NCBI GenBank assembly: GCA_022842995.1
Contig: JALHOM010000003.1
Coordinates: 12,659-76,658, forward strand
DNA length: 64,000 nucleotides
Reading direction: 5' to 3'
Origin: Candidatus Saccharimonadota bacterium
Lineage (GTDB): Bacteria > Patescibacteriota > Saccharimonadia > Saccharimonadales > 2-12-FULL-41-12
Below, piece by piece: positions 4,133-38,613 of the stretch (positions are counted from its first letter, which is position 1; the number at the start of each line of letters is the position of its first letter). The notes under the pieces are model-generated. The model was not told the origin of the DNA. It saw only the letters and a program-made list of their open reading frames with translations, and searched no databases. The position numbers and the translations under genes are program-made.

Positions 4133-4417
4133 TTAGCGAGCCGTAGAGCCTTTTTCGATCGTATCCCGGAAGCTGTCTATTACCGGGCCAAGGAGCGGAA
4201 TTTGGTCAAACAAGCCCAAGAACCAGATGAAAATACCTAAAACAAACGTCGCGCCAATCACACCACCGATGGCAAAAAACATTCCCCTAACAAAATTTTC
4301 GGCATAGAGTCGCCGGCGACTGATATAATCATCGGCAAACAATATCTCGAGCGCCTTGGCGACGTCGGCACGGTTTTTACGAATAACGGCCGGATCTTTT
4401 TCTTTCTTTTTTCCCAT
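4133..4417 (-). CDS. small membrane protein (95 aa from internal Met)
   Basis: The ORF track gives 4133-4540, but that start overlaps rmuC. MGKKKEKDP... at 4417 starts 16 nt after the rmuC stop. One clear TM segment (FFAIGGVIGATFVLGIFIWFLGLF). Confidence 0.6.
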   Translation of the reverse strand: MGKKKEKDPAVIRKNRADVAKALEILFADDYISRRRLYAENFVRGMFFAIGGVIGATFVLGIFIWFLGLFDQIPLLGPVIDSFRDTIEKGSTAR

Positions 4418-4433
4418 ACCGCTTATTCTAACA

Positions 4434-11801: not shown

Positions 11802-12725
11802 CTATTCGTCATTAGCATTTATAAAAACATAGGCCAGACGACGCCTGAGCTGCAAAGCCTGGACGCGGCGCACCCGTTTACGCACAAACCGCCACATCGG
11901 AAACGATGCCTTAAATGCCGCTACGCCAAGTAGCGCGCCGACAATCTCGTCAAAGACGTAGTGCTCGGCAAAATACACTGTACCAAAGTAGATGGAAGCC
12001 GGATATATCAGCGTAAAATAACGCCATTTTCCTTTAAATAATTGGAATATAAACAAGCAAACAAGCGTTGCATAAGCGGCGTGCAAAGATGGTACAGCCG
12101 CCACTGCGTTAGGCGATATCTGATTATACATGCTTGGGAAATCTTGGACTCCTAGAGCGAACCAGACATCTGAAGAAATACGGCGAACCGGTTCAATAAG
12201 GCCCATATCACTGGACATCCACGGTGGCGCAGCCGGGAAAGCCAAAAAAGTCAGAAATCCAGCAAAAGACATGGCCACAAATGTCATCACGTAGCGCCAG
12301 TAATGCTGTTCCCTGATCTTCCAGATTACGATAGCCAGCACGATCACGATAACGTAGTGCATCATATACATCAGATACATAAGAAAGTCGTACCACTGCA
12401 CTTGCCCATTCCATAAATACTTCTGTAGCTCTAACGTCGGCAAAACCCCGGCGAACATCAGTCTATCGACAGCCGGCATAAACATGTAGTTAACGTTGTT
12501 ATTGAGGTAATCGGCAAAACCCCTAAAGAGGTCGTAAACTGCCATCAAAGCAATGAAAGGCACGAGACGTTTCGTTAATTCCCAAGCCTGACCAAAAACC
12601 ATGCCGATAAAAACAGCTAATATCAAAAGCTTGTCCGGAGTCGGAAAACTCGGAGACTTGGCATATATATAAACCCACCCAAAAGCCCCTAAAAAACCAA
12701 AAATTGGCAAAACACGTCTAACCAT
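11802..12725 (-). CDS. PAP2-superfamily membrane phosphatase/phosphotransferase-like protein
   Basis: 307 aa, polytopic, PSLHAAYA motif region typical of PAP2_3-type proteins. Confidence 0.55.
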   Translation of the reverse strand: MVRRVLPIFGFLGAFGWVYIYAKSPSFPTPDKLLILAVFIGMVFGQAWELTKRLVPFIALMAVYDLFRGFADYLNNNVNYMFMPAVDRLMFAGVLPTLELQKYLWNGQVQWYDFLMYLMYMMHYVIVIVLAIVIWKIREQHYWRYVMTFVAMSFAGFLTFLAFPAAPPWMSSDMGLIEPVRRISSDVWFALGVQDFPSMYNQISPNAVAAVPSLHAAYATLVCLFIFQLFKGKWRYFTLIYPASIYFGTVYFAEHYVFDEIVGALLGVAAFKASFPMWRFVRKRVRRVQALQLRRRLAYVFINANDE

Positions 12726-13091: not shown

Positions 13092-13592
13092 ATGATTTCT
13101 CGTGGCAAATGTAGAAAGGCTATTGCCCCTATGGCTTTAGTATTAGGTGGGTCATTGCTGTTTACAGGCAGTGGTAAAACACCGGACGGCCCAGTTCGCT
13201 CTCCTGAAAATATGTCCATAACGGTCGCATCACCTGCCGAGGTATACCTCGTCAGCGCTCCACCTCACACAGTTATGCCATCATTGCCAGACCTTTTCGA
13301 CCAACAATCAGCTCGCTTGCGATGCTTCATATTATCTGGCTCAAAGCTAACACTCCAGTCGACAGGTGTCGAATACACACCAAAACCGCTATCCGGTTTG
13401 GAACCTTATGAATTCTACCTTAGAGAATGCCCCAGTGGCTCGACCGTCGATATTCCAGATACTAGCCTTGACGTACTAGGAATACCATCATTCACCAGAG
13501 ACCTCCATGTTCGAAGGTTCGCCATTACAGTCCAAGGATCCCTCGAGCGAAAACCATTCAAACCCCGAATACCCTTTGGCATCATCTCATAA
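13092..13592 (+). CDS. hypothetical secreted/anchored protein (166 aa)
   Basis: ORF with a hydrophobic N-terminus (AIAPMALVLGGSLLF). No recognised domain. Confidence 0.4.
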   Translation: MISRGKCRKAIAPMALVLGGSLLFTGSGKTPDGPVRSPENMSITVASPAEVYLVSAPPHTVMPSLPDLFDQQSARLRCFILSGSKLTLQSTGVEYTPKPLSGLEPYEFYLRECPSGSTVDIPDTSLDVLGIPSFTRDLHVRRFAITVQGSLERKPFKPRIPFGIIS

Positions 13593-13696
13593 ATTTACTA
13601 TACTAAAGCATCGGCTAAATCCGGAATGTGCGATTTAAAATCCTCAGGTCAAAGATTCAAGATTGGACACTTTTACGGTATAATTACGTTTATTAA

Positions 13697-13870
13697 TGGG
13701 GATTGGCCAAGTGGTAAGGCACATGGTTTTGGTCCTGGCATTCGGGTGAGAACCTCCAGTGGAGGTTTGCAAGGCCGGAAACTGATTTTAAGCTATGCTT
13801 AAAGTAAGTTGAGGCGGGGCCGAGACTCGGCTGAAGCCCGCTTCACCGAGATCGTGGCGAAGAATCAGTA
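13697..13870 (+). ncRNA. tRNA-Gln(UUG)-like 5' portion (acceptor 5' strand, D arm, anticodon arm, variable loop) fused to a ~120-nt structured extension; not a canonical tRNA
   Basis: TGGGGATTGGCCAAGTGGTAAGGCACATGGTTTTGGTCCTGGCATTCGGG is followed by hairpin AACCTCC-agt-GGAGGTT (13751-13767) and further stems. It lacks the T arm and the acceptor 3' strand. TATAAT at 13679-13684 lies 12 nt upstream. The 3' end is uncertain. Confidence 0.5.
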
Positions 13871-13920
13871 AATCAAGATTCGAACCCCCTGCACTTTTAC
13901 GTTATAATTACGATCATTAA

Positions 13921-14055
13921 TGGGGATTGGCCAAGTGGTAAGGCACATGGTTTTGGTCCATGCATTCGGGGTGAAGATTACCTGTGGTAATCTGCAAGGG
14001 AGTCAACTCTTGCAAACTGGTTTTGCAAAGATGTTGCGACGGGGTTGCCGAAGGT
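13921..14055 (+). ncRNA. second tRNA-Gln(UUG)-like 5' portion fused to a homologous but diverged structured extension
   Basis: The first 39 nt are identical to the 13697 copy (46 of the first 49; differences only at 40, 42 and 43). The anticodon stem is intact (CATGG/CCATG). Then hairpin AGATTACC-tgt-GGTAATCT (13975-13993) sits between the same flanks (GGGTGA ... TGCAAGG) as copy 1. TATAAT at 13903-13908. The 3' end is uncertain. Confidence 0.5.
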
Positions 14056-14080
14056 GACTCGAATCCCAAAATTAACATTT

Positions 14081-14194
14081 CATTTTATAACTCTTGGCTC
14101 ATCAGTGGGATGTGGCCAAGTGGTAAGGCACCAGGTTTTGGTCCTGGCATTCGGGGGTTCGAATCCCTCCATCCCAGCCAAGAGTTATAAAATG
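14081..14194. repeat. perfect 19-bp inverted repeat bracketing the intact tRNA-Gln
   Basis: cattttataactcttggct (14081-14099) is the exact reverse complement of agccaagagttataaaatg (14176-14194). The right arm includes the tRNA 3'-terminal AGCCA. Confidence 0.9.
14106..14180 (+). tRNA. tRNA-Gln (anticodon UUG), CCA encoded
   Basis: Manual cloverleaf: TGGGATG/CATCCCA acceptor, GCCAAGTGGTAAGGC D arm, CCAGG-TTTTGGT-CCTGG anticodon arm, CATTC variable loop, GGGGG-TTCGAAT-CCCTC T arm, then GCCA. Close to E. coli tRNA-Gln. Confidence 0.95.
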
Positions 14195-14213
14195 AATCCC
14201 TCATCCCCAGCCA
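14194..14213 (+). other. orphan tRNA-Gln 3' fragment (part of T loop, T-stem 3' strand, acceptor 3' strand, GCCA)
   Basis: gaatccctcATCCCCAgcca compared with the tRNA 3' end gaatccctcCATCCCAgcca. Its acceptor strand ATCCCCA complements TGGGGAT of the two upstream 5' portions, not the intact gene. Confidence 0.75.
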
Positions 14214-14263: not shown

Positions 14264-14692
14264 ATGTCACGAAAATTAGATGCTAAAATCCGAGATTGGT
14301 TACCCCATATCTTTATTTGCTACTTTGAATATGAAAGTTTAAACACTCTAGAAATAGTCAAACACACTGGCGGCGTCCTACGAATCCTTGGTGATGCGCA
14401 AACCCAAATTAATGAAATCAACGATGTACTTAATCACTTAGAAGAAAATAATCTATTGAAGTCATCGAGCACAGAAAGAGCGCATTACTTTGGGATAGAC
14501 CTCGAATCGGTAACCTATAAGGTGCTACCAGACTTCATAAAACTCGCCGACGACGTCAGAAATGCCCCACAATCATCTAAAGATGACATCGTTGTAAACT
14601 ATACCGAAAATAACGTGACCTACAATTTTAATATAACGTTTGCAATTGAGAAATTAGCTGAGATTAAGGCAGGATTATTTAATTTTTTGTAG
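14264..14692 (+). CDS. hypothetical protein (142 aa)
   Basis: ORF followed by a clean terminator. No recognised domain. Confidence 0.5.
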   Translation: MSRKLDAKIRDWLPHIFICYFEYESLNTLEIVKHTGGVLRILGDAQTQINEINDVLNHLEENNLLKSSSTERAHYFGIDLESVTYKVLPDFIKLADDVRNAPQSSKDDIVVNYTENNVTYNFNITFAIEKLAEIKAGLFNFL

Positions 14693-32799: not shown

Positions 32800-35700
32800 A
32801 TGAAGTCTTTTGGGTTAAGCGCTTGGGTGGGCGCCGCTTTAGTGGCATTATTATTGGTAGCTTTTCACGTACCGTTTTCACCCACGGCTTCTGCAGATAT
32901 TAATCCGCAAATAAACTTCCAGGGTAAGCTTACTAACCCCGACGGCACTAACGTCACAAACGGGACGTATTCGATTGTATTTAGTATTTATACTGTTTCG
33001 AGTGGCGGGTCTTCTGTCTGGACCGAAACCCAAAGCTCTGTCTCTGTTACCGATGGGATTTTCCGGGTTTCTTTGGGGAGCATAACACCACTGCCTGGCA
33101 GTGTTGATTTTAACAGCAACTCACTTCACCTCGGAATCCAGGTCGGTGCCGATGCCGAAATGACACCTCGAGTTCAGTTTACGGCTGCGCCATATGCCTT
33201 TAATTCCCAGCGACTCGGTGGTCTGACTGCCGACGGGTTCATAAGGCTCGGTAACGCTACCGCGCAGGCTGACGCCACAACGAACAACAGTATTTTTCTT
33301 AACAAAACCGCAGCTGGCAATATCGTCCTCCTACAATCCTCTGGAACCGATGTTTTCAGCGTAACTGGGGCCGGCAACATCCTCCTCGGTCAAAATGCCG
33401 ACAAAACCATCAGCGTTGCACAGACTGCCTCAAACGCTGGCGGTCAAGACTTAACGTTAATCGCCGGGCAAGGTGGCGCTGGGGCTGGCGCAAATGCCGG
33501 TGGCGCTACGACCATCCAAGGTGGTCAGGGTGGCGGCACTAACGGCGACGGTGGATCAGTTATTTTAGCTGGTGGCGCTGCTAGCGGTTCCGGATTAGCC
33601 GGCAACGTAACAGTCCGGAACGCCGCAAACTCAACCACTGCCTTCCAGGTCCAAAACGCAGCCGGGACAACAACGGTCCTGGCAGTCGATACCGTTGGGG
33701 GTAATGTTAATGTAAATGGCGGGGTTAATGTCAATACTGTCGACAGTTCAATCGTTAAAACCTCGTCTGCTGATTTCGCCCTTGGTACCGTGGGCGCATC
33801 CATCCTGAACGCCAATGGGCAATTAGAACTTAATGACGGGACTATCCCGAACGCTGGTCGTGGCACTATCACGACCGCTGGCCAGCCAGCCACTTCTGGC
33901 GCAATCGCTGCCGGGGCTTTAGCTATCTCTCGACCAGACGGACGCTACCTTGTACTGCGCGGTGGTGGTACTGGCATGGATATCTATGACTCGATCACCG
34001 GCACCTTCACCAACTCTGCCCAGGTTCTGAACGGGGTAGCCGGCGCTGGATCACTGGCATTTCCACGACCAACTGGTCAATACCGCATCATTCACGGCGG
34101 CGGCCTCACAACCACATCACTCGTTGACCCACAGGGCAATATCGCCGTCGGCGGCAGCGTAGCCGTTACTGCATCAAACGCCGGTACAATTGCCCACAAA
34201 CGCCCCGATGGCCGATATATATTTACCAACGGTGGCGCCGCATCAACACAGGTCTATAACCCTATAGCCGACAACTTTGCCGCCGGGCCGGCGCTGGCAA
34301 CCGGTACTTCTGGAGCTGGTTCATTATTCCTCCCCAGGAATGACGGCAGCGGCTTACTGATAAATGGCGGCGTAACCAGCACGACAAATGTCTACAACCC
34401 AACAACGGGCGCAGGCGACATTGGCGCCTTCACTGCCGGACCTTCCCTGGACGGCAACCAAGCAGCGGGCACCTGCGGTATCAACGGTGCCGGCTCAGTA
34501 GCCTTACGCAAAGCGGACGGCAAATACCTAATACTCTCGAGGGTCAATGTCTCGGCCACCTACGACCCAGTGGCCAATACGATCACATGTTCAACCACCG
34601 GGCCCGCCACTGCTCTTGGCGACGGTGCCCACGCCATTCCTTATCATGACGGTAAATTCTTAATCATTGTCGGCGGTAACTCCACTCTTTCTTACGTTTA
34701 TGACCAAAATGCCGGCACCTTCACCGTTCACAACACCGCCCTTACAGCAGTGACAACGGGCGCATTTTCGCTTATGCGACAAAACGGCACCTGGCAGATA
34801 ATTACCGGCACCGACACCTGCACCACCGGCTGCAGTAACAACCTCGACCTCGGTATGCCAATGAACGGCGCCACTGCTCGCTACACCACCGAAGATATCT
34901 CCACTACTTCATTAAACGAAGCAACAACGCTTAAATGGACAGCCCAGCTTGAAGCAATCTACGCTGCTGCATCTAACGGCACAACTAACTCAGCTTTCTC
35001 GGCCATGCAATTTTTTGTCCGAACTGCTACCAACTCAAGCGGCTGCACCACACCACTCAACAGTGCCATAGACAAAGAGATCACCGTTAACGGCGACTTT
35101 ATCCGTCCCTCCCCAACCGATAACTGCGTACGTATCAGCGTACAAATGAATCGACCCCTGCCAAAAAGAATCATCGACGAACGAGGTACTTGGACTGGCA
35201 ACAGCTCAACAATTTCACGGCTTGATTTCGTAACGCCAACCCTGTTCGACCTCGCCTTAGACAACTCGACTGTATTGCACCGCGATAGTTTCAATTTCAA
35301 TGCGCCCGGCTCACAAGAAAACAGCAACGGCACTATTCCAACCGCCATCACTTCAAATGCTCCGACCGCTGGTGGCGCTTGTACAGCTGGTAACCACTTC
35401 TGGTTCGTCACTTATGTCACTAACGGCGTCGAGTCACGTCTGAGCCCTACTTCTGCCGTCCAAAACTGTACCGGACCAAATGGTACCGTGTCTCTAACGA
35501 CTATTCCAACCGGACCCAGTGGCACGACTGCTCGCAAAATATATAGAACCAAGGCCGCCGCCCTCGCTACCGACACACCATATCTTTTAACAACTATCAA
35601 CGATAACGTCACCACCATCTTCAGCGACACCCTCGCCGACACCTCACTTGGTGCAGCCTACACGTACATCGAAAACTCAGGGCCTATTGGCACCAGGGTT

Positions 35701-38613
35701 GAAGCAGCCGCTAATCTCGGTGGGTCGCTCACCCTCCCTACCGGCCGCGTTCCAGGACCAACAGCCACCGGTACCACCGGATTTTATGCAGGCGTTATTT
35801 CAGGCGCCCACCCTAACCTCAACCAAGCGCAAACCAACCAAAGTACCATTGTAATAGCCCGACCTAATCGAACTTTCGTGGTCATTGCCAGCCTGACTGC
35901 TCCCGCAGCCAATGCTTCTATTTACGACCCTGCAACCCAAATCTTTACCGCCCAGGCAGGTACGAGCATCCCAACGGCAGCGAACGGCACGGGCGGTTTT
36001 GCACTCAAGCGACCAGATGGAAAATACTTTGTCGTTCTGGGCAACAATACAGCCACAACAAATATTTATGACCCCGTCACGAATACCTTTTCGCTTGGAC
36101 CAGCAATGACAGCCGCTATTGCTGGTGTCGGCGCAAGCGCTATCCTTAACTCTGACGGTACATATACTATCGTTCACGGTAACGCGCTCACCAGCACGAC
36201 GCTCTACGACCCTATTCGCAATACCACATCAGCCGGGCCAGTCACTACAACGGCCGTTAACTGTGGTTTTTGGGCTATTCCACTTAAAAATGGTCAATAT
36301 AAAGTATTCCCTGGTGTCGCCGACGGTATAGCCGGAGTCACAACATCAATGAACTACGACCCACGCACGAAATCATTTACTGCCGGAATAGCGCTTGCTA
36401 GTGCCCATGGCTGTGGATCATTTACCTTCCAAAGACAGGATGGTTTTTGGTTAACAGTCTCAGGAGGTGCCGGTGTAGCAGGCGCCGACGTCTTAACAAC
36501 CAACCTCATAAACCCGGACAACGGAACCGCAATCGCCGGACCTGCGCTATCTGGTGTCGCCGGTACGTCTGGGCCACGAAGAGGCGCTCATGTTATTCCA
36601 CGAGCTGACGGCACTTTCTTGATCATCCACGGTCGCCAAGTCACCAATACCACCATCTACTTCCCGTGGGGTGGAACATTCGGTGTTGGCGCCGGCATCG
36701 GTACGGCTGCTGCCGGTCCCGCCCTAACAGCGGCGGCCGATTCAGGCGCGTTATCATTCCAAAGACCAGATGGTAAATGGGTCATCATTAACGGCAATGC
36801 TACGCAAACAACCATGCTCTATGATGCCGGTTGGTACGGAGATGGCCAATATTTATCAGAACAAATGCAAGTCCCGGCCATGCCTGCCAACTCCACGCTC
36901 AACTGGAAACAAACCAACGACAACTTCGTACGTTTTGAAGTCCGCTACGCGAGCTCGCAAGCAGCCTTGGCAACAGCACCGTATTATTCGATTGCCAGAC
37001 CAGGTCAAAGTATCGCCAACCCCGGCGGTGAAACATGGGCTCAGATCGAGATCAACCTACGCCGCGACTTCCCAACCTTCCCCGGCACCCTGGACGGGGT
37101 TTACGTTAGTGGTGGCGGCTTGGTCTTCGGCAACCGCGCCATATCACAACCAACCGTTATGTCTTATAGCATTAACAACGGCAGAGACTTACTGACCTTA
37201 CAAAACAACGGCCTCGACGTCTTCCGCGTCACCAGCGACGGCAGCGTTTATTCGTCAAGTCGCGGCGGCTTTTACTCTGGTGGTGCCGACTTAGCAGAAA
37301 ACTATAGTTCAACCGAAAACTTATCTCCCGGTGAAGTCGTAATCATGGACTCTGTCGATAATAAATCGGTCAAGCGATCGACCAACCAATATCAAGAATC
37401 AATCTTGGGCGTTGTATCGACCGAGCCTGGCTTTGTGGCTGGCGCTTTCACCGAAAACTCACACCCCATCGCCCTCGTCGGGCGTGTCCCCGTAAAAATA
37501 AGTACCGAAAACGGCGACGTTAAACAAGGCGACTTCTTAACCTCAGCCTCCATACCCGGCTACGCTATGAAGGCAACTGTCTCTGGCCGTGTACTTGGTA
37601 CCGCTCTAGAAGGATTTGACAGTAGCAAAGCAACACCGTGCCCTCAAACTGGGTTAGGCAGCCAGTCAGAAACACTATGTGGCCAAGTGATGATGTTCGT
37701 TAACCTCACTAACTACCAAGGCGCCAGTGTTGACGCCCTGATGGATCAAGCGCCGAGCGGCTCATTTGTCGGTGAAGCAATTTTGCCAGGCTTTGACTAC
37801 CACTCCATCAACGGCCTTTCCAGCGATAATTCTCGCCAAGAAAATATCTTAGGCTACCTCAAATCACTCCGCGACAAGCAAGCCTCCGGCCAATCTCCAG
37901 AAGGTGGCGAAATCCTCACCAACCGATTAAGCGCGGTCAACGAAGTCATTAGCCCTGTTATCGTCACTGACCTACTACGGGCCAATAAAATCCAGGCCAA
38001 TTCTATCGAAGGCCTCGAGATTTACACCGACAAAATTGCCGCCCTCGAAGATTCACAAAAAGGACTTGTAACCACCGCGTCGGCTACATCCAACAGTACC
38101 GCCATCAACCAACTCGAGAGAATCCAAGCCAAAAACGGCTACTTTACTATCGGATTAGTGTCTCTCGGCCAAATAGAGGCCAGAGGCGGGCTGGTAGTCG
38201 ACGGAGCCTCGCAGTTCAATGGCCGTACCACCTTTGCCGCCATGGTTCAGTTCATGGGCAACGTCGAATTTACCAACGATATCTTGGCCAAAGGCCGTGT
38301 AACGTTCAACAAAGACAGTGGCGGTAGCGTAGCCATCAAGAAAACAGAAAGGCGCATCTCGGTTGTTTTCGATAAACCTTATCAAGAAAAACCGATCATC
38401 ACTGCTTCAGTTACGATAGATAGGCCAAAGGATCAACTCACCCCTCAGGAAGAAGCCGAAGCTGCATTAAGGGAACAAACACTATTCGACGCCGGCTATA
38501 GCTATCTCGTTTCTGACGTTAGCACCAAAGGCTTTACAATAGTCCTAAACAAACCAGCAGCCGAAGACATAACTTTCAGTTGGAACGCCATCTCGGTCCA
38601 ATCCGACAACTAA
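32800..38613 (+). CDS. giant secreted surface protein (1937 aa): tail-fibre-like N-domain, Gly-rich segment, two Kelch-like beta-propeller repeat blocks, C-terminal H-type-lectin-like domain
   Basis: Signal peptide. INPQINFQGKLTNPDGTNVTNGTYSIVFSIY...VWTE N-domain. About 13 repeats of (R/K)PDG.Y.(V/I)..GG...T..(Y)DP...TF..GP (nt ~33900-34860 and ~35850-36840). ADLAENY...PGEVV module. C-terminus GFTIVLNKPAAEDITFSWNAI. Confidence 0.85.
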   Translation: MKSFGLSAWVGAALVALLLVAFHVPFSPTASADINPQINFQGKLTNPDGTNVTNGTYSIVFSIYTVSSGGSSVWTETQSSVSVTDGIFRVSLGSITPLPGSVDFNSNSLHLGIQVGADAEMTPRVQFTAAPYAFNSQRLGGLTADGFIRLGNATAQADATTNNSIFLNKTAAGNIVLLQSSGTDVFSVTGAGNILLGQNADKTISVAQTASNAGGQDLTLIAGQGGAGAGANAGGATTIQGGQGGGTNGDGGSVILAGGAASGSGLAGNVTVRNAANSTTAFQVQNAAGTTTVLAVDTVGGNVNVNGGVNVNTVDSSIVKTSSADFALGTVGASILNANGQLELNDGTIPNAGRGTITTAGQPATSGAIAAGALAISRPDGRYLVLRGGGTGMDIYDSITGTFTNSAQVLNGVAGAGSLAFPRPTGQYRIIHGGGLTTTSLVDPQGNIAVGGSVAVTASNAGTIAHKRPDGRYIFTNGGAASTQVYNPIADNFAAGPALATGTSGAGSLFLPRNDGSGLLINGGVTSTTNVYNPTTGAGDIGAFTAGPSLDGNQAAGTCGINGAGSVALRKADGKYLILSRVNVSATYDPVANTITCSTTGPATALGDGAHAIPYHDGKFLIIVGGNSTLSYVYDQNAGTFTVHNTALTAVTTGAFSLMRQNGTWQIITGTDTCTTGCSNNLDLGMPMNGATARYTTEDISTTSLNEATTLKWTAQLEAIYAAASNGTTNSAFSAMQFFVRTATNSSGCTTPLNSAIDKEITVNGDFIRPSPTDNCVRISVQMNRPLPKRIIDERGTWTGNSSTISRLDFVTPTLFDLALDNSTVLHRDSFNFNAPGSQENSNGTIPTAITSNAPTAGGACTAGNHFWFVTYVTNGVESRLSPTSAVQNCTGPNGTVSLTTIPTGPSGTTARKIYRTKAAALATDTPYLLTTINDNVTTIFSDTLADTSLGAAYTYIENSGPIGTRVEAAANLGGSLTLPTGRVPGPTATGTTGFYAGVISGAHPNLNQAQTNQSTIVIARPNRTFVVIASLTAPAANASIYDPATQIFTAQAGTSIPTAANGTGGFALKRPDGKYFVVLGNNTATTNIYDPVTNTFSLGPAMTAAIAGVGASAILNSDGTYTIVHGNALTSTTLYDPIRNTTSAGPVTTTAVNCGFWAIPLKNGQYKVFPGVADGIAGVTTSMNYDPRTKSFTAGIALASAHGCGSFTFQRQDGFWLTVSGGAGVAGADVLTTNLINPDNGTAIAGPALSGVAGTSGPRRGAHVIPRADGTFLIIHGRQVTNTTIYFPWGGTFGVGAGIGTAAAGPALTAAADSGALSFQRPDGKWVIINGNATQTTMLYDAGWYGDGQYLSEQMQVPAMPANSTLNWKQTNDNFVRFEVRYASSQAALATAPYYSIARPGQSIANPGGETWAQIEINLRRDFPTFPGTLDGVYVSGGGLVFGNRAISQPTVMSYSINNGRDLLTLQNNGLDVFRVTSDGSVYSSSRGGFYSGGADLAENYSSTENLSPGEVVIMDSVDNKSVKRSTNQYQESILGVVSTEPGFVAGAFTENSHPIALVGRVPVKISTENGDVKQGDFLTSASIPGYAMKATVSGRVLGTALEGFDSSKATPCPQTGLGSQSETLCGQVMMFVNLTNYQGASVDALMDQAPSGSFVGEAILPGFDYHSINGLSSDNSRQENILGYLKSLRDKQASGQSPEGGEILTNRLSAVNEVISPVIVTDLLRANKIQANSIEGLEIYTDKIAALEDSQKGLVTTASATSNSTAINQLERIQAKNGYFTIGLVSLGQIEARGGLVVDGASQFNGRTTFAAMVQFMGNVEFTNDILAKGRVTFNKDSGGSVAIKKTERRISVVFDKPYQEKPIITASVTIDRPKDQLTPQEEAEAALREQTLFDAGYSYLVSDVSTKGFTIVLNKPAAEDITFSWNAISVQSDN

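Follow-up and report, generated by a model that had tools for sequence, protein, structure and literature searches.

The window examined here, by which we mean the whole stretch of 64,000 nucleotides (nt) taken from contig JALHOM010000003.1 of a Candidatus Saccharimonadota bacterium (positions 12,659 to 76,658), contains a rearranged tRNA-Gln locus. At this locus, two truncated copies of the tRNA gene run into small structured inserts, which we call element 1 and element 2, and both copies stand upstream of an intact tRNA-Gln gene. The locus apparently exposes an abundant structured element of the bacteria of the Candidate Phyla Radiation (CPR, or Patescibacteria), with an unusually precise relation to tRNA genes.

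The tRNA-Gln locus

A single tRNA gene is called in the 64 kb of the window, that of the intact tRNA-Gln(UUG) at 14106-14180 (ARAGORN; Rfam tRNA model, 65.7 bits), and two tandem units lie upstream of it, at 13668-13891 and 13892-~14067. The features of the locus are listed below, where P1, P2 and P3 are the three hairpins of the element, the long and short arms are the tRNA portions on either side of it, and R1 is the covariance model introduced in the next section.

13668-13696 (+): unit 1 upstream repeat with a -10-like TATAAT (13679-13684), a candidate promoter; the repeat is 94% identical to 13892-13920
13697-13746 (+): unit 1 long arm, tRNA-Gln(UUG) type A positions 1 to ~52, with a chimeric anticodon stem; it ends in GG, with the element directly after
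13747-13858 (+): element 1, subtype A, with an extra hairpin within P3 as at loci L068 and L140 (R1 model and fold); P1 13747-13772, AGG, P2 ~13774-13815, GGGG, P3 13819-13858
13859-13891 (+): unit 1 short arm and spacer, consisting of GAATC (13862-13866), a loop and GATTCGAACCCCC (13877-13889)
13892-13920 (+): unit 2 upstream repeat with TATAAT (13903-13908), also the putative replacement promoter from the unit 1 spacer
13921-13971 (+): unit 2 long arm, tRNA-Gln(UUG) type A positions 1-52, with a self-consistent anticodon stem (repeat analysis; Rfam, 22.4 bits)
13972-14058 (+): element 2, subtype B; P1 AGATTACC-TGT-GGTAATCT, TGCAAGG, P2, GGGG, P3 TTGCC-GAA-GGTGAC
14059-14067 (+): unit 2 short arm TCGAATCCC, tRNA positions 55-63; GT (53-54) is missing between the arms
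14068-14105 (+): spacer, containing a -10-like TATAAC box and, at 14079-14099, the left half of a 21-nt inverted repeat
14106-14180 (+): intact tRNA-Gln(UUG) type B, the functional gene spared by the array (ARAGORN; Rfam, 65.7 bits)
14176-14196 (+): right arm of the perfect 21-nt inverted repeat, beginning within the tRNA 3' end (AGCCA)
14194-14213 (+): orphan 3' arm of tRNA-Gln type A, from T loop to CCA

The two units share a 79-nt direct repeat (13668-13746 and 13892-13970) that is 94% identical between them, and the corresponding region of the intact gene (14077-14155) is 70% identical to it. In both units, 12 nt separate the end of the TATAAT box (13679-13684 and 13903-13908) from TGGGGAT, the start of the tRNA, and the tRNA part stops at T-stem position 52/53, that is, after the first 50-51 nt of tRNA-Gln(UUG). 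A first-pass annotation, made from the letters of the window and a list of its open reading frames (ORFs), had described these units as promoter-bearing tRNA-Gln(UUG) 5' portions fused to structured RNAs. Two tandem TATAAT-bearing units with a truncated tRNA-Gln(UUG) and a structured insert are indeed present; as for "promoter-bearing", the -10-like hexamers are there, but a sigma-70 promoter scan called neither of them. Neither interrupted copy is called as a tRNA gene by ARAGORN or by Rfam at the gathering threshold, the tRNA portion of unit 2 scoring a sub-threshold 22.4 bits against a cut-off of 29; the ARAGORN run that had been suggested for this locus thus returned the gene at 14106-14180 only.

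The tRNA sequence of the units, which we call type A, has the acceptor strand TGGGGAT, and that of the intact gene, type B, has the acceptor stem TGGGATG/CATCCCA. The anticodon stems of unit 2 (CATGG/CCATG) and of the intact gene (CCAGG/CCTGG) are self-consistent, and that of unit 1 is a chimera of the two (CATGG/CCTGG) with two mismatches. This chimeric stem, already noticed in the first-pass annotation, is accounted for by recombination between copies and shows that A-type and B-type sequences have recombined. The acceptor 3' strand is absent directly after either unit, and the strand pairing with TGGGGAT of both is present only as the 20-nt orphan fragment at 14194-14213 (GAATCCCTCATCCCCAGCCA), as had been reported. 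This fragment is identical to the 3' ends found after elements at four related loci (L174, L177, L179 and L082), and it probably represents either gene A's displaced 3' end or the long arm of a downstream-type unit from which the element has been lost.

Two further repeats frame the intact gene. The perfect 21-nt inverted repeat (14079-14099 and 14176-14196) encloses tRNA-Gln B and holds the TATAAC box in its left arm; it may be a stem used in processing or the scar of a recombination event. GAATCCC, a direct repeat of 7 nt (14061-14067 and 14194-14200), flanks the segment with tRNA-Gln B, and removal of 14068-14200 would join unit 2, its short arm and the orphan fragment into a complete tRNA-Gln A with element 2 as its sole interruption. 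The segment carrying tRNA-Gln B gives the impression of a replacement tRNA gene that was inserted separately. The first reading had missed the inverted repeat, as well as the exact match, found by repeat analysis, between GATTCGAACCCCC at 13877-13889 and the reverse complement of the T arm (14153-14165). The element boundaries are set here at 13747-13858 and 13972-14058.

Independent assemblies of the same organism (Logan contigs L001-L003) stop close to ~13726 and ~14140 of the window, within the tRNA arms that are repeated. Arrays of this kind therefore break short-read assemblies and are probably under-represented in metagenome-assembled genomes (MAGs).

A family of elements in Saccharibacteria and their relatives

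The two inserts can be aligned to each other, sharing GGTGA, TGCAAGG and, after exactly 33 nt, GTTGnGnCGGGG and a terminal hairpin; their shared flanks had been noticed before, and the two inserts are homologous. Shuffled sequence gives an expectation of 0.00 for the pattern they share, of which the window has two occurrences. A first pattern, which contained no tRNA sequence at all, was used to scan one genome per species and returned 30 loci, 19 of which have the full motif. These true loci belong to genomes named Candidatus Saccharibacteria (~12) or Patescibacteria (2), the remainder being unclassified MAGs, and in every one of them the motif adjoins tRNA sequence. The other 11 loci come from unrelated phyla and have neither the hairpin nor a tRNA context, where by our own estimate ~7 would be expected by chance.

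A covariance model, R1, was built from 20 full-length copies. It recovers element 1 at 13745-13858 (82.4 bits, E = 5e-21) and element 2 at 13970-14058 (86.2 bits, E = 4e-22), the latter aligning with 18 relatives, and finds no further copy in the 64-kb window. Other training copies score 66-94 bits, so the elements of the window, at 82 and 86 bits, are intact members of the family and not the decayed products that had been suggested as one explanation. R1 also retrieves more copies in relatives, such as three around one tRNA-Gln at locus L017 and four at L020. A second pattern, restricted to the apex of P1, the first hairpin, matched at least 120 loci in a metagenome scan, and among the matches listed R1 finds 128 copies in 100 of these loci. 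All the metagenome-based statistics given below (the sets of 126 sequences and of 60, 115 and 137 copies) rest on the matches listed. Overall, there are at least ~150 copies, distributed over named Saccharibacteria and Patescibacteria genomes and unclassified metagenome contigs. The covariance-model search of related genomes that had been called for thus shows the extensions to be conserved in a family of relatives, and the two inserts of the window are almost certainly members of this large family with a real conserved structure. The dominant metagenomic subtype among the matches listed has a middle hairpin unlike those of subtypes A and B in the window.

On viral contigs, which double as a negative control, 35 pattern matches were found, none of them convincing (best R1 score 18.6 bits) and none beside a tRNA. 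Rfam 15, searched with permissive thresholds included, gives only tRNA and scattered chance-level matches for the window locus and its relatives, and its intron models match neither the window locus (E up to 10) nor the loci of 16 relatives (E up to 1-10). The literature searched, including searches with sequence strings, holds no description of the element, the nearest report dealing with canonical group I introns that interrupt tRNAs of Patescibacteria at position 35/36 (PMC13011429). The element is thus apparently undescribed so far and abundant in Saccharibacteria-type (CPR) bacteria.

RNA structure and covariation

The family layout reads P1, GCAAGG, P2, GGGG and P3, that is, three hairpins in 90-115 nt, with a consensus of ~88 nt and variants of up to ~115 nt. 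P1, lying between GG-UGA and GCA-AGG, has 11 base pairs (bp) with an A·G mismatch and the apex GCC-nGU-GGC. P2 is a long irregular hairpin with several subtypes and is followed by GGG(G), and P3 (GUCGC…GUGAC) sometimes has an extra hairpin in its loop, as in element 1.

In the 20-sequence seed, 97.2% of the alignment cells are paired, against 24-48% when the partners are slid; both sides have changed in 8 of 18 pairs (7 of the 10 within P1), and a G·U pair in P3 is kept in 20 of 20 sequences. With 126 distinct sequences, the paired fraction is 98.1% (29-51% with slid partners), both-side changes are found in 15 of the 18 pairs, 106 of 116 sequences retain the G·U of P3, and 0 of 500 shuffles reach any of the observed measures. 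Within the window itself, the first hairpin of the two extensions stays paired through 4 double changes, and the selection on its structure that had been proposed from these two copies is now shown on the 126 sequences. In the larger set and in the independent seed alike, the family thus shows compensatory changes, on one strand and beyond controls, as is expected of a conserved structured RNA. The fold is of the RNA type, wobble pairs far outnumbering mismatches. Since G·U pairs are common and mismatches rare, it belongs to the strand running from GGUGA to GUGAC. Such strand specificity indicates a transcript, or possibly single-stranded DNA, and we give an action as RNA rather than as single-stranded DNA about an even chance.

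The minimum free energy fold of element 1 yields P1, P2 and P3 (-48.8 kcal/mol, z = -4.0). That of element 2 departs from the family fold, which in this case rests on covariation with relatives. An alternative helix, in which the 5' GGUGA would pair with UCGCC to close a three-way junction, was rejected, the covariation favouring the local P3 hairpin: a change from UCGC to CCGC is matched by one from GUGAC to GUGGC, the 5' GGUGA being unaltered. Readings as a hepatitis delta virus-like ribozyme, a kink-turn or a two-tier G-quadruplex were considered and set aside as unsupported. A hammerhead was also considered, since just upstream of the intact tRNA the minus strand reads CTGATGAG (CUGAUGAG), the core heptamer with one additional base, at 14098-14105; this sequence has no Rfam hammerhead match and is probably due to chance.

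Junctions and target sites

In 60 copies, both flanks could be mapped to the neighbouring intact tRNA, and 59 of these have flanks that together leave out exactly 2 nt of the tRNA. UGA directly follows a G in 60 of 60, the dinucleotide in front of it is GG in 55, and the three nucleotides in front of it are GGG or AGG in 53. The first nucleotide after the element is C in 38 copies and T in 14, and the target as a whole reads G(G)/NN/Y, with slashes for the limits of the replaced dinucleotide. Most of the insertions lie in the T arm (43 copies, typically G53/T54 T55/C56), the others being in the D arm after G18 G19 (9) or in the anticodon arm (8), and the element is co-oriented with the tRNA in 57 of the 60. 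Unit 2 of the window obeys this rule: after CGGG(G), G53 and T54 are absent, and the tRNA resumes at TCGAATCCC. An insertion into the T arm of tRNA-Gln copies, as initially proposed, is correct. The insertions are not simply nested, however, as the locus is an array of independent units with the same standard architecture as at L082, L017, L020, L008 and L009.

No internal guide appears to track the target, because the same subtypes occur in T, D and anticodon loops; a role as bridge RNA or omega RNA was set aside, as no guide-target correlation is evident. A few copies lie outside tRNAs, either in a G-rich hairpin loop or at the tips of hairpins formed by their own flanks near gene ends. The latter is the case at L106 (~4341-4429, minus strand) and L153 (3800-3887), where the genes are protein-coding, and because of these two copies the targets are hairpin loops in general, not only those of tRNAs. 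Next to the copy at L106, the reverse complement would encode GMGGMM, which resembles the C-terminus of GroEL by eye only.

The G-rich loop is found at L077, L108/L161 and L109, where arrays follow the same partial-duplication logic in a non-tRNA target (for example on the minus strand of L077, ~385-593). This target consists of a hairpin loop, AGGGGGTGGGCACCG, then CACCCTTCAACCCACC, with a possible pseudoknot. A T-box was considered for L077, L108 and L109 and rejected, as neither the Rfam T-box nor any other family matches there; the target may be another undescribed RNA.

Architecture of the units

An intact tRNA gene lies within 400 nt of 79 of the 115 copies, with 14 tRNA identities covered, against 2 of 12 chance-like matches. 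The interrupted copy itself is almost never complete. In-silico removal of the element, with any dinucleotide restored, gives a complete tRNA in 4 of 137 cases, the other 133 lacking one tRNA end, and for this reason the element is not an intron of a functional gene. Where the intact tRNA is downstream (n = 34), the 5' arm has a median of 27.5 nt and reaches position 1 in 21 of 34 copies, and the 3' arm has a median of 9.5 nt; where it is upstream (n = 25), the pattern is mirrored. The short arm thus has a median of 9.5-11 nt, and the long arm extends to the tRNA end. In relatives, the retained arm can be as little as the first ~20 nt of the tRNA, or only its last ~21 nt.

Upstream-type units with T-loop insertions, taken from nine tRNA identities, have 39-57 nt between the element and the intact tRNA, and this spacer has a fixed order of modules: the short arm TCGAATCC, a few nt, a complement of the T arm, (G)ATTCGAACC (in 8 of 15), 5-8 nt, and a TAyAAT box (in 12 of 15) that ends ~7-12 nt upstream of tRNA position 1. 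Unit 1 of the window has this layout, with GAATC, a loop, GATTCGAACCCCC, 13 nt and TATAAT. As the spacer carries a TAyAAT box, the resident promoter would stay with the interrupted copy and the downstream gene would receive a new one. In 40 of 59 copies, the flank on the short-arm side has more structure than shuffled versions of itself, a tendency that is modest but real.

The closest analogue of the window at a tRNA-Gln locus is L082, where two upstream decoys with elements, each followed by a short arm, and a spacer with TATAAT precede the intact gene and its terminator, after which comes a downstream unit ending in TCGAATCCCTCATCCCCAGCCA, a match to the orphan fragment of the window. One of the two L082 decoys (minus strand, oriented 13568-13778) is a pseudo-tRNA with an element in the D arm and a second in the T loop, and a single pseudo-tRNA at L008 (4170-4433) likewise has both. 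In the pseudo-tRNA-Pro of L009 and L018, the D arm GCGC-AGTTGGCTA-GCGC has become a near-perfect hairpin, GCGCTAG-AAT-GCTAGCGC or GCGTTAG-ACT-GCTAGCGC, and this remodelling suggests that the arm is selected as an RNA structure rather than as tRNA. At L017, L020 and L082, the 3' end of the intact tRNA-Gln (…AGCCA) opens a long terminator hairpin, for example AGCCAAATAAAAT…ATTTTATTTGGCT, and the use of a tRNA 3' end as the start of a terminator seems to be common in genomes like these.

Evidence for mobility

Copies of the same array are as dissimilar as random members of the family (P2 identity 0.37 against 0.38; P1 identity 0.60 against 0.65), unlike their tRNA arms, which are nearly identical. 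The combination of unrelated elements with near-identical arms argues for independent acquisition rather than for local duplication followed by drift. In the window, accordingly, subtype A lies beside subtype B. The number of copies per locus ranges from 1 to 5, and two single MAGs have copies at different tRNAs. At some loci (L008, L009/L026 and L016/L031), P1 gave a hint of being genome-specific or of evolving in concert, an idea rejected on the larger set, where P1 identity is 0.60 within and 0.65 between loci.

One pair of genomes provides an empty and an occupied site. L016 and L025 are 92% identical in their upstream DNA over 1.65 kb. At L016, the gene for tRNA-Pro(UGG) is uninterrupted. 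At L025, the orthologous promoter is followed by an arm, the element, the short arm, a ~110-nt spacer with its own TATAAT, and an intact tRNA-Pro(UGG) that is 100% identical to the L016 gene. L016 does have an element, a related copy (~90% identical) in the adjacent tRNA-Pro(CGG) decoy, with compensatory changes in P2. Presence and absence at an orthologous site, here in one clean pair, and dispersed copies are what is generally expected of a mobile element.

No protein is encoded in cis. In ORF clustering of 20 and then 128 loci, no protein family recurs within 2.5-3 kb of the element, and a linked transposase, integrase, reverse transcriptase or nuclease was rejected on these grounds.

A probable mobile element with an RNA cargo

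We consider the element to be probably a mobile insertion element, and the array in the window is, in our favoured account, the outcome of at least two independent insertions of a small, non-autonomous, site-specific element with a three-hairpin RNA cargo. Each unit has four parts: a long tRNA arm (here TATAAT and tRNA-Gln positions 1-52), the element, placed directly after G(G) in a loop with exactly 2 nt replaced, a short tRNA arm, and a short spacer, which in upstream-type units carries the T-arm complement and a new TAyAAT. The interrupted copy is a truncated decoy, and the essential tRNA gene remains intact alongside. The element would take over the resident tRNA promoter, so that a chimeric RNA with the 5' part of the tRNA and the element is presumably made, and the displaced gene would be driven from the spacer promoter. 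A trans-acting activity with specificity for G-rich hairpin loops may give rise to new sites. Natural competence is documented in Saccharibacteria (PMC10187176), which is why we propose that existing units could also pass between cells by DNA uptake and recombine through the conserved tRNA arms. A circle made of the element, short arm, spacer and long arm might be the integrating form, since Campbell-style integration of such a circle would reproduce both unit types.

A bolder version of this account, which we put forward only tentatively, places the RNA at the centre of the process. The ~88-nt RNA, ribozyme-like or protein-recruiting, would direct its own insertion into G-rich hairpin loops of structural-RNA genes, excising two nt, capturing a promoter and installing a spare one, by a mechanism unlike that of any known transposase, integrase or intron. 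An RNA intermediate might take part, or the folded target might be recognised at the RNA level.

Several points weigh against the mobile-element account. None of the copies has a transposase, integrase or reverse transcriptase linked to it, and we know of no mechanism or enzymology that replaces exactly 2 nt. Mobility is a comparative inference, drawn from one empty/occupied pair and from the heterogeneity of the arrays, and neither a circular intermediate nor recent identical copies were seen. Recombination through the arms cannot account for the same spacer module in nine tRNA species. Transcription is a prediction, and the promoter scan did not call the TATAAT boxes. The strong purifying selection and the invariant G·U exceed what is typical of a selfish DNA repeat and would fit a host-beneficial non-coding RNA. 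As for the data themselves, the "invariant" GGTGA, GCC/GGC apex and GCAAGG were fixed by the search patterns, the alignment of 126 sequences (A4) was fitted to the model, and the arrangement in the window has no independent check, the only other assemblies of the organism breaking within the repeat.

Alternative explanations

It is possible, even if we think it unlikely, that the element is a trans-acting RNA of benefit to the host (a ribozyme, aptamer or protein-binding RNA) expressed from tRNA promoters on a scaffold of tRNA stems, with a copy number that shifts by ordinary duplication and recombination. The strong covariation, the near-invariant G·U and the conserved G-rich junctions speak for such a role, as do the co-orientation of 95% of the copies with the tRNA, the remodelling of pseudo-tRNA arms into longer hairpins at L009 and L018, short-arm flanks that exceed their shuffles in structure in 40 of 59 copies, and the lack of any linked mobility protein. 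Against it stand array members that are no closer than random family members, a window in which two subtypes are adjacent, copy numbers of 1 to 5 per locus, an orthologous site empty in one genome and occupied in another, and a junction rule that does not differ between the three tRNA loops (D, anticodon and T), non-tRNA hairpins and antisense copies. A host-beneficial role is nevertheless compatible with the mobile element favoured above, as a useful RNA can ride on a mobile unit.

We find it rather improbable that the element is instead a single-stranded DNA element of the type of the repetitive extragenic palindromic (REP) sequences, REPINs and their RAYT transposases, or of the palindrome-associated transposable elements (PATEs) of IS200/IS605, in which a Y1/HUH transposase encoded elsewhere would recognise folded hairpins and insert the element into loops extruded from the template of the lagging strand. 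In favour of this, the element is short, has no coding sequence, is specific to one strand, has hairpins at both ends and leaves no target-site duplication, and its targets are loops of hairpin-forming DNA, both tRNA arms and terminator-like hairpins. The orientation bias could mirror the direction of replication, with which tRNA genes are usually co-oriented. However, no RAYT or TnpA is found in the neighbourhood of any of the ~150 copies among the matches listed, and the Rfam motifs of IS605-associated RNAs give no match. REP and IS200/IS605 elements insert beside a fixed tetra- or pentanucleotide and delete no bases, whereas here exactly 2 nt are replaced. The sequence of P1 also varies within a locus, unlike a REP hairpin recognised by a protein.

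Pure decay, that is, attachment-site scars of integrase-type islands or prophages once located in tRNA-Gln, is very improbable. A partial tRNA duplication beside an intact tRNA is said, after Williams in 2002, to be the classic footprint of tyrosine integrases, with T and anticodon loops reportedly favoured; the partial copies beside the intact gene fit this picture, and the orphan fragment at 14194-14213 resembles an attR remnant. What lies between the arms, though, is a conserved and covarying 88-nt structure, present in ~150 loci among the matches listed. No integrase is near in 128 loci, many units duplicate the 5' part and promoter of the tRNA instead of its 3' part, and the element was not found on the viral contigs scanned.

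We give equally little credence to the suggestion, made in the first-pass annotation, that the units are tRNA-derived decoys titrating anticodon nucleases, synthetases or other tRNA-recognising factors. In the window, the tRNA-Gln portions of the two units do retain both the D arm and the anticodon arm, downstream of a TATAAT. In the family, however, the arm may comprise only ~20 nt of the 5' end or only the stretch from T loop to CCA, 14 tRNA identities and some non-tRNA hairpins are used, and the anticodon stem of unit 1 is mismatched. It is the inserted element and its junction that are conserved, and no tRNA portion or identity feature.

Finally, tRNA introns in T, D or anticodon loops, self-spliced or protein-spliced, are the least credible reading and largely refuted: even though Patescibacteria are rich in tRNA group I introns (PMC13011429), the elements sit in loops, unit 2 and the orphan fragment would give a complete tRNA-Gln if 14068-14200 were removed and a full tRNA is regenerated in silico in 4 of 137 copies, the other 133 interrupted copies miss one tRNA end, the 2 nt missing in 59 of 60 leave splicing unable to restore the tRNA, Rfam gives no intron match at E up to 10, ~88 nt is far below the size of group I or group II introns, and an intact copy of the same tRNA stands alongside.

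Comparison with known systems

Among the known systems closest to the mobile element proposed here are the tRNA-targeting elements of tyrosine integrases (genomic islands, prophages and tycheposons), which use the same T-loop and anticodon-loop sites, leave a partial tRNA copy, regenerate the intact gene and form tandem arrays. Partial duplication with a regenerated intact gene is seen both in the architecture of our units and in the L016/L025 pair. In contrast, no tyrosine or serine integrase is encoded by the element or found adjacent to it, either at the 20 and 128 loci or among the neighbours in the window; the units are of ~200-250 bp and encode neither an integrase nor any other protein. 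Many of them duplicate the 5' part together with a replacement promoter, not the 3' part, and they differ further in the replacement of exactly 2 nt, the structured-RNA cargo, and the additional use of D arms and non-tRNA hairpins.

IS607-family serine transposons prefer (G)GG targets and produce no target-site duplication (PMC6188088). The element resembles them in being preceded by GG in 55 of 60 copies without a short target-site duplication. However, IS607 has GG at both termini and exchanges over a dinucleotide without losing anything, whereas this element ends 3' in GUGAC, or in an equivalent that covaries, and the target loses 2 nt; moreover, IS607 is of ~2 kb and has tnpA, while this element is of ~90 nt with no tnpA or tnpB nearby.

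REP/REPIN sequences and the PATEs and miniature inverted-repeat transposable elements (MITEs) derived from IS200/IS605 are likewise short, non-coding, hairpin-forming, multi-copy and strand-specific, and are mobilised in trans. The element differs from them in being made up of three separate local hairpins, which are connected by conserved, G-rich single strands and include an invariant G·U, instead of a single palindrome or terminal inverted repeats, and in its precise targeting of loops, its 2-nt replacement and its embedding in partial copies of the target gene.

The tRNA group I introns of Patescibacteria come from the same phylum, interrupt loops and are also missed by standard tRNA finders, but they are longer than 200 nt, can be detected with Rfam, occupy position 35/36 of complete genes and splice precisely (PMC13011429). 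The element, by contrast, has ~88 nt, no Rfam match, incomplete gene copies around it and 2 tRNA nt missing. Free-standing homing-endonuclease and intron insertions of organelles follow the same logic, in which a partial duplicate saves the essential gene; those insertions encode the endonuclease that drives them, and no protein is encoded here.

CPR genomes are tiny and regarded as streamlined. With at least 120 loci in one metagenome scan, the element is among their commonest non-coding features, and it accounts for tRNA fragments, tandem pseudo-tRNAs and assembly breaks at tRNA loci; the covariance model lets annotators mask or label these regions. To our knowledge, no enzymology has been described for the replacement of 2 nt after G(G), for the choice of the tRNA elbow or anticodon tip, or for the promoter swap, which could together signal a new recombination or RNA-guided insertion system. 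Such a system, if true, would be attractive for engineering, as it would enter conserved safe-harbour genes precisely and without destroying them. If the RNA is instead beneficial to the host, it would represent a new and widespread class of structured non-coding RNA, its invariant G·U making it a ribozyme or aptamer candidate.

Other features of the window

The window has a GC content of ~45% and carries ordinary bacterial genes, including those for TypA/BipA, CorA, a PAP2 phosphatase, a HIT protein, an alcohol dehydrogenase and a Na+/H+ exchanger, and the neighbours of the tRNA-Gln locus are orphan ORFs and housekeeping genes. A phage origin was rejected, there being no megablast match to phage records other than generic tRNA-Gln similarity. 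The locus is flanked by ORFs at 13092-13592 and 14264-14692, with no Pfam or PHROG match, which are orphan genes or non-genes; the flanking ORF of 166 amino acids has only a self-match among 5.8 billion proteins. At 32800-38613, an ORF of 1937 amino acids coincides with a local GC content of 0.52-0.54, against ~0.45 elsewhere.

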